64,000 bases of DNA, from assembly GCA_964016885.1 (NCBI GenBank), contig OZ024741.1, positions 241,118,001 to 241,182,000 on the forward strand, given 5' to 3'. A program made the position numbers and the translations under genes. Source of the stretch: Eledone cirrhosa (lineage: Eukaryota). The first letter of the stretch is position 1. Each line of letters starts with the position of its first letter. Shown piece by piece: positions 32,856 through 33,746 of this stretch. Under the pieces are notes generated by a model. That model saw nothing but the letters and a program-made list of their open reading frames with translations, had not been told where the DNA came from and searched no databases.

Positions 32856-32948
<93 letters not shown>

Positions 32949-33233
32949 CAAATAACGAAACGAAATTAAATTTCGTTTCGCTTCTAACTCACTTTTGTAT
33001 GACTGACGCTTAAACAATTAAGTTAAAGTGTACATCTACATATGTATACGGAAGTATTAGTATGCATATAAATACACACATGTATACATATGTACATGTA
33101 CTCAGTTTTTCACTAGACACTTTACAGTGAGTGTCAGCTAGTCTGTATGTAACCACACAGACGGACCGGGTTTTAGAGTCATACGAGTTTTCAAGGAAAC
33201 ACATTTCCTCTATTCTTCAGAGGGCCAGACAGG

Positions 33234-33278
33234 AATATTGGACTAGTTTCGATGTTATTACATCTCATCAGCAATATT
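33234..33278 (-). ncRNA. Minimal type I hammerhead ribozyme
   Basis: AATATTG-CTGATGA-GATGT aata ACATC-GAAA-CTAG-TC-CAATATT: 7-bp stem I, 5-bp stem II, palindromic ACTAGT stem III, GUC site. Confidence 0.9.
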
Positions 33279-33702
33279 TACCCATCTTCCGGCTTCTCTG
33301 GAGAATTGTAAAAGCACATATCGTTATATGCTTTTTCTATGAAAATTAGTAGTGGGTAGACTAATTTGCATAGAACGTGAGTCATTGTACGCACCGGTTC
33401 AGCGGAAACGATAAAAACAAATAACGAAACGAAATTAAATTTCGTTTCGCTTCTAACTCACTTTTGTATGACTGACGCTTAAACAATTAAGTTAAAGTGT
33501 ACATCTACATATGTATACGGAAGTATTAGTATGCATATAAATACACACATGTATACATATGTACATGTACTCAGTTTTTCACTAGACACTTTACAGTGAG
33601 TGTCAGCTAGTCTGTATGTAACCACACAGACGGACCGGGTTTTAGAGTCATACGAGTTTTCAAGGAAACACATTTCCTCTATTCTCCAGAGGGCCAGACA
33701 GG

Positions 33703-33740
33703 AATATTGGACTAGTTTCGATGTTATTACATCTCATCAG

Positions 33741-33746
<6 letters not shown>
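33703..33746 (-). ncRNA. Minimal type I hammerhead ribozyme (second copy)
   Basis: Identical core; the stem I 5' strand merges into (TA)n. Confidence 0.88.

Follow-up and report, generated by a model that had tools for sequence, protein, structure and literature searches.

Which element left an 805-bp non-coding repeat with two hammerhead ribozymes in a TA microsatellite of Eledone cirrhosa, and how was it copied there? The window that we analyzed is a stretch of 64,000 nucleotides (contig OZ024741.1, positions 241,118,001 to 241,182,000 of the forward strand), and we searched its own assembly (3.0 Gb, 1,796 contigs) for relatives of the repeat. An initial annotation of the window, made from its letters, had classified the repeat as a non-LTR retrozyme, and this classification is supported by the results below. 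The features of the locus are listed in window positions. Within the repeat, unit position 1 is window position 33746, read on the minus strand, and cleavage follows unit position 37. PLE stands for Penelope-like element.

32942..33746, minus strand: the 805-bp insertion as a whole (a full 469-bp unit and a further 336 bp); a 5'-truncated single arm with the long 3' end
33703..33746, minus strand: hammerhead 1, with stem I truncated at the (TA)n junction; core at 33740-33734; predicted cleavage after 33710
33227..33287, minus strand: hammerhead 2, complete, with an extended stem I; core at 33271-33265; predicted cleavage after 33241
33241..33709, minus strand: predicted monomer between the cleavage sites, 469 nt, non-coding, 36% GC, strongly self-paired
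32942..33015, minus strand: PLE-type "tail" (unit 263-336), spanning the family's two fixed 3' ends
33364..33371, minus strand: octamer-like motif, kept between the 469-bp family and a 65-70% identical sister family
32855..32941, no strand: (TA)n target on the 3' side of the element; the tract call extends to 32944
33747..33782, no strand: (TA)n target on the 5' side of the element; the tract call starts at 33743, and the junction has ATAT in common with the unit

The partial tandem in (TA)n is as first described: at a lag of 469 bp, 32942-33277 matches 33411-33746 over 336 bp with a single mismatch, at 33217 (1.7 copies). The two hammerheads on the minus strand were also confirmed in the letters. 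Both have type I topology with every core residue intact, and their cleavage residues (C17) lie at 33710 and 33241, which gives a monomer of exactly 469 nt. The longest stop-free frame in this monomer is 84 amino acids, in agreement with its description as non-coding. One detail needs correction. The heptamer AATATTG had been ascribed to every copy; hammerhead 1 reads TATATTG, being cut off at the target, and its stem I has only 6 bp, without the 5' strand for an extended stem. The label "minimal" applies to stem III alone: the stem I of the internal hammerhead 2 is predicted to reach about 17 bp with a bulge, and its stem III consists of 1 bp and a palindromic loop. According to folding predictions, forcing the 1-bp stem III in a monomer is unfavorable (+0.2 versus -5.7 kcal/mol), and the two motifs can pair as a 6-bp intermolecular stem III duplex (-6.2 kcal/mol), so hammerhead 2 is predicted to work as a dimer.

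An Rfam search of the window, which had been proposed as a check, gave no matches at the gathering score. At the E-value level, Hammerhead_HH9 was found on both motifs (E = 6.4e-06 and 5.7e-05), under its 52-bit cut-off. Rfam miRNA matches at that level are a TA-rich hairpin and were set aside. The linear 469-nt monomer folds far more stably than its shuffles (z = -10.85).

Two other elements of the window may be mentioned here. A third hammerhead, of the type with a TA-palindrome stem III, lies at about 9619-9657 (minus strand), and its repeat family is also present at loci L073, L102, and L239. A fragmented LINE with endonuclease and zf-RVT domains occupies 25864-29020 (minus strand).

To what class does the element belong? 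Plant LTR retrozymes have a type III hammerhead in their LTRs, a PBS, a PPT, and a 4-bp TSD; here, the units are contiguous tandems without a central region and the hammerheads are of type I, so the element is not of that kind. No reading frame with reverse transcriptase and GIY-YIG domains follows the unit, so it is not an autonomous PLE either. It does have the features of a non-LTR retrozyme: tandem hammerhead units that are non-coding, strongly self-paired, and of 36% GC, with dispersed recent copies.

The dispersal is clear from the genome. The exact 44-nt ribozyme has 1,296 copies, versus none for a reversed control, and a search with the unit gave 450 matches from the 39 candidate places that were scored out of 621; the full units listed are 98-100% identical. 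These 621 places and 1,296 exact copies rule out an assembly artefact or one local duplication, either of which the initial annotation had named as grounds for rejecting its proposal. The first 100 exact-ribozyme places fall into 30 loci within the first 95.7 Mb of contig C1, and we estimate a total of about 600-900 loci. Subfamilies at about 96% and 88% identity are present. Judging from its identity of about 99.5%, the 469-bp family appears to be very young and to have spread recently. We conclude that it is a new and recently active family of non-LTR retrozymes, a kind of element that is already known, including from a mollusc.

For the anatomy of the insertions, we took the 37 best-scoring loci and 27 more in order along C1. 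Because loci were chosen for containing the ribozyme or a full unit, the sample is enriched in arms that run across the cleavage site. Arrays have 1-16 units, except for one of about 141; the position-ordered loci carry 0.7-4.7 units, and most loci overall have 1-5. Two of the 27 loci taken in order, L156 and L157 (C1:55.97-55.99 Mb), are identical insertions 17.7 kb apart within a 99.9% identical duplicate, which is either a recent segmental duplication or an assembly duplicate.

Read in the orientation of the ribozyme, the insertions have two fixed 3' ends, unit 259-268 and unit 332-336; their 5' ends are variable. The fixed ends sit 225-300 nt downstream of the cleavage site. Head-to-head inversions were found in 46 of the 64 loci. 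In 38 of these, a long end is paired with a short one; a single inversion is long at both ends, there is none that is short at both, and seven have an irregular end on one side. TA repeats adjoin 94 of the family's 110 3' ends. The copy in the window has no inversion and carries the long end. The spacing of the two ends gives this family a tail of 69-74 nt, and unit 263-336 contains a 13-bp hairpin followed by a U-rich tract. Dispersed tandem copies had been anticipated from the sequence of the window, and a genome-wide search for the unit had been suggested; such copies are what we found, with variable 5' ends and two fixed 3' ends.

The initial annotation had the element begin exactly at stem I of the first ribozyme. 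This is a particularity of the window copy. The 5' ends of 95 arms are spread evenly over the unit (7-13 in each of ten bins), and one of the 95 lies within 3 nt of the cleavage site (unit 35-41); the set includes three false calls and lacks some arms of divergent loci. Since the 5' ends are uniform, the start at stem I in the window is a chance truncation, helped by the ATAT in common. Stem I is thus rejected as a designed boundary, and the fixed ends are the 3' ends, at unit ~262-267 and 336.

This architecture is that of PLEs. In the description of Craig et al. (2021, PMC8557442), PLE insertions are partial tandems with 5' copies in inverted orientation, and one of their ends carries a tail. 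For AT-rich DNA, Frangieh et al. (2024, PMC11167929) report cleavage of both strands by a PLE protein and extension of each; reverse transcription begins at two internal sites, and the distance between these sites corresponds to the tail. Two 3' ends about 70 nt apart, ragged 5' ends, inversions, and a (TA)n target are the PLE signature, and we infer that the tail at unit 263-336 is the stretch between two such start sites. The element is very probably non-autonomous and mobilized by a PLE of some kind. The earlier suggestion of a Penelope-type reverse transcriptase is therefore supported by the footprints at the insertion ends and not by any sequence kinship with the pLTRs of the partners that we sampled. 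We also looked for chimeric junctions with a partner PLE at the 5' flanks that are not TA repeats, and these flanks are unrelated older repeats.

If a PLE is involved, the unit might simply be the pseudo-LTR of an autonomous PLE whose coding copies lay outside the sample, which is 65 of the estimated 600-900 loci; heavy 5' truncation is frequent in PLE insertions (PMC8557442), and this would help to explain such a sample. We think that there is very little chance of this. By tblastn with three PLE proteins, a PLE reading frame is joined to the unit in 0 of 65 loci, so the family is not an ordinary pseudo-LTR, a possibility that the initial annotation had set out as contrary to its proposal. 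The same search has matches in 26 of the 65 loci. Five of these are within 700 bp, and they are old fragments (27-60% identical) that lie 220-685 bp away. In the true PLEs of this genome, the reading frame comes directly after the tail; here the unit is followed by another unit, and arrays have up to 16 of them. Also, the unit has no significant similarity to the terminal repeats of three PLE families of the genome.

These families were identified by using four PLE fragments from the flanks as queries. Three of the queries led to families with intact, near-identical copies, and the fourth to mainly broken copies. All three families insert in (TA)n (L098-L114, L243-L254, and L232-L238), and all three show the same two-end pattern as the 469-bp family. 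Family A encodes a protein of 714 amino acids, with a mean identity of 99.55% over 66 pairs, (TA)n targets, and a tail of ~66-70 nt. It has the Hydra-clade motifs RWK, DKT, CxCX5C, CxxC, and CxH at residues 41, 118, 559, 662, and 693, and with its C-terminal GIY-YIG domain, hammerhead, and (TA)n target it is, by motifs, a member of the Hydra clade. Family B (743 amino acids) has an identical motif set by eye and a tail of ~90 nt. Family C (~880 amino acids) has a tail of 42 nt and is Neptune-like by our reading. Pfam did not recognize these proteins, and Atlas clustering placed them in PLE-type clusters. Tails of ~66-70, 90, and 42 nt are not among the lengths given in the available text of Craig et al. 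(PMC8557442); 30-40 bp is the figure quoted for PLEs. In the window itself, 45600-45818 (plus strand) is a truncated, short piece that is inserted in (TA)n and has a small inverted arm; its hammerhead (core at 45721) matches the terminal repeat of the 743-amino-acid Hydra-type family.

Because tail length, age, and (TA)n target agree, the young Hydra-clade family A is the best candidate for the partner. Among the three families compared, the two besides A are also young and also target (TA)n, and whether A is the right one is close to a coin toss. The retrozyme tail finishes with the same five letters as the tail of family A; an alignment of the two tails is not significant (565 of 1,000 shuffles score as high), and the hammerhead of family A differs from the ribozyme of the 469-bp unit. 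A match of the unit to the terminal region of a Hydra PLE, which none of 200 shuffles equaled, was rejected as TA-rich low complexity. We also looked for a partner among ribozymes that have this stem III but a longer stem II; the 70 matches are mostly unique or belong to the 469-bp family itself, and none of them pointed to a partner. Across the genome, these matches include about 55 hammerhead-like motifs that all differ from one another, with a stem II region of 16-17 nt; they are perhaps an ancient decayed ribozyme family.

What was the template? We typed the units at four columns, which define five common haplotypes. Among 33 typed inversions, the two arms agree in haplotype in 32 (chance expectation 0.234), and 224 of 230 typed units match the type of their locus. 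For eighteen variants, all units of the insertion that cover the position carry the variant. Of these, eleven are each fixed in a single locus (eight loci in all), and in seven of these loci they span both arms. Uniform insertions of 14-17 units exist for each of four haplotypes. Most simply, these variant patterns suggest a single-unit template that was copied repeatedly. A single-unit template, together with 5' ends that do not pile up at the cut site, points to a ligated circle; uniform haplotypes and scattered 5' ends would fit a circular monomer and do not prove it. A homogeneous source array could likewise give uniform haplotypes, and conversion could mimic the rest.

We consider it reasonably probable that the 469-bp family is a young non-coding non-LTR retrozyme with PLE-type ends in (TA)n that was copied by a PLE reverse transcriptase/endonuclease from the predicted 469-nt circle. 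The ribozyme strand of the tandem copies would be transcribed, to judge from the fixed 3' ends and ragged 5' ends. Adjacent hammerheads are predicted to pair via the palindromic stem III and to excise monomers, which a host ligase might circularize, by analogy with other retrozymes (PMC7229834). A PLE protein, most plausibly that of family A, would nick both strands of (TA)n and prime inside the RNA at unit ~262-267 and 336; the ends are observed, and the chemistry is that described for another PLE (PMC11167929). From each primer, copying would then go around the template, with a number of rounds that varies, and the head-to-head joining of both products would give the observed architecture. 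Some arrays later expanded by local duplication, up to 66 kb, as is seen from higher-order repeats.

In its most specific form, the proposal is that the arrays are a direct record of rolling-circle target-primed reverse transcription: a Hydra-clade enzyme would prime twice, about 70 nt apart, on one circle made by the ribozyme, and would write two inverted concatemers into TA repeats. We offer this version tentatively, as possible and short of probable.

A circle may also be unnecessary. A non-autonomous parasite of a PLE could be copied from a linear template, either an uncleaved or partly cleaved multimer or a cleaved monomer with template jumping, and the hammerhead would then trim transcripts or serve some other step. 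The single PLE that has been tested in vitro inserted normally with a mutated hammerhead, and it mainly used uncleaved RNA as its substrate (PMC11167929); this indicates that hammerhead cleavage is dispensable for PLE insertion and counts against a required circle. The uniform 5' ends suit uncleaved RNA as well as a circle. Furthermore, there are 28 variants that only part of the units in their insertion carry. Most of these are found in long arrays where patterns repeat, and in three loci (L052, L063, and L174) such variants extend across both arms. Partly shared variants are not expected from a pure monomer circle without later conversion. Yet most loci have 1-5 units, and under a linear template each of the four haplotypes with uniform insertions of 14-17 units needs its own long master. 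Variants that are fixed in a single locus occupy all of its units, usually in both arms. No two independent loci have an inversion junction in common (the sole identical pair is the 99.9% duplicate), and jumping between monomers should mix haplotypes, yet just six of 230 units are off-type. On balance we regard a linear template as rather unlikely, and we continue to prefer the circle.

Another route to the tandems is that a PLE terminal repeat inserted as one or two copies and was multiplied only later, by unequal crossing-over; a satellite route of this kind is discussed by Li, Clavereau and Pollet (2026, 10.64898/2026.07.22.740005). Something similar did happen at C1:95620986-95687167 (L115-L117 and L175), a 66-kb array of about 141 units from the 96-97% subfamily. 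It contains an inversion, ends at unit 267 and 336, and has an intact core in 54 of the 69 ribozyme sites read. A 2,817-bp higher-order repeat (six units) indicates that this array grew locally after insertion. Locally repeated variants are also seen in L033, L054, L066, and L067. As an account of the family as a whole, later crossing-over is improbable: L056 has multi-unit arms without any private variant on both sides of its inversion, 12 of the 36 arms from the loci taken in order along C1 already reach across two cleavage sites, and no parent PLE bearing the 469-bp repeat was found.

The variants also revealed a mutation hotspot at unit position 62 (window 33685 and 33216) and its neighbor 61, often repeated within a locus. 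At position 62, a non-CpG A, seven loci have three different bases, as compared to a mean of ~0.4 per column. The mismatch between the window's own copies falls at unit position 61. The hotspot is possibly a site of reverse transcriptase errors or a modified RNA base.

The sister family has units of ~428 bp that are 65-70% identical to the 469-bp unit along their full length. It has 3,380 candidate places, with 93-97% identity among the 40 that were scored, and is older and more abundant than the 469-bp family. Examples, with a GUA cleavage triplet, are at L108:8445-8872 and L180-L209. It has its own two 3' ends, at ~245-250 and 296-307, spaced ~57-62 nt apart. Across six sequences of both families, the ribozyme core is kept and five stem pairs changed on both sides; 87% of cells pair in the shared fold, versus 25-47% for slid controls. 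This covariation, which comes from two lineages and not from many independent events, suggests that the ribozyme fold has been kept between both families via compensatory changes. As circles, both units are predicted to fold more stably than their shuffles (z = -12.3 for the 469-bp family and -10.2 for the 428-bp family).

Newt satellite 2 reportedly has an snRNA-type promoter, and this, together with the octamer-like motif, led us to consider whether the same holds here. Neither family aligned better than shuffles to the up- and downstream regions of two U2 loci (best 12/200), and the octamer is absent within 400 bp of four U2 loci. The comparison with U2, in alignments and in the octamer, gives no support to an snRNA-type promoter.

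How animal retrozymes are mobilized is still a matter of proposal, with PLEs named as likely helpers (PMC7229834; 10.64898/2026.07.22.740005). What this family adds is that a non-coding repeat with a ribozyme bears the clear marks of priming at two internal sites, in the manner of a PLE. The ends predict the priming sites (unit 262-267 and 336), the (TA)n target, a circular template of 469 nt, and a candidate enzyme of the same age, and the published in vitro assay for a PLE (PMC11167929) could test the circle model directly. If the rolling-circle reading is true, it would name an enzyme and circRNA pair for the mobilization of a retrozyme, and it would suggest that PLE tandems in general derive from circles.

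Our literature search, which covered mainly open-access papers, found no such family of retrozymes or Penelope-like hammerheads in octopus or other cephalopods, and a term search of a paper on Octopus vulgaris repeats (PMC13282606) found no mention of ribozymes. Non-LTR retrozymes were defined by Cervera and de la Peña (2020, PMC7229834), who showed circles in coral, mussel, and axolotl and considered PLEs to be strong candidates for the helper. As described there and in PMC7761336, metazoan non-LTR retrozymes resemble the 469-bp family in being non-coding tandem units of a few hundred bp with GC below 50%, with one type I hammerhead per unit and a self-paired monomer, without LTR, PBS, or PPT, and in occurring beside PLEs. 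The unit here is longer, at 469 nt, than the 170-400 nt given for invertebrate retrozymes (PMC7229834), and its stem III is of the weak, 1-bp palindromic amphibian type, whereas most invertebrate retrozymes have the stable type. RNA and circles were shown for the retrozymes of coral, Mytilus galloprovincialis, and axolotl; for the family described here, they are predicted. The Results and Discussion of PMC7229834 name PLEs as candidates without a tail, inversion, or microsatellite signature. In the described structure of its ribozyme, the family resembles newt satellite 2 and axolotl HHR_Amex1, which also have a 1-bp helix III with a palindromic tetraloop and which require dimers for efficient cleavage (PMC7229834); the host here has an invertebrate-type genome.

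In its insertions, the 469-bp family is like Hydra-clade PLEs (PMC8557442) and the anole Poseidon (PMC11167929): partial tandems, 5' truncation, an inverted 5' arm, a one-ended tail, a (TA)n target, and a hammerhead upstream of two ends. The 469-bp unit differs from these PLEs in lacking a reading frame, in its tail of ~70 nt (versus the 30-40 bp quoted for PLEs), and in that its ends lie 225-300 nt past the cleavage site and it has no sequence similarity to the PLE terminal repeats sampled. The argument of Li, Clavereau and Pollet (10.64898/2026.07.22.740005) for Xenopus rests on co-occurrence and on similarity to pLTRs, without deciding on a mechanism, and they saw in vitro cleavage in one of nine Xenopus retrozyme dimers; unlike that case, ours is made from insertion ends and variant patterns, and the pLTR parent was not found. 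Their 35 genomes include no mollusc. Nevertheless, the two lines of work agree in treating animal retrozymes as non-autonomous PLE sequences, and in vertebrates, as in Eledone, monomers, dimers, and multimers coexist.
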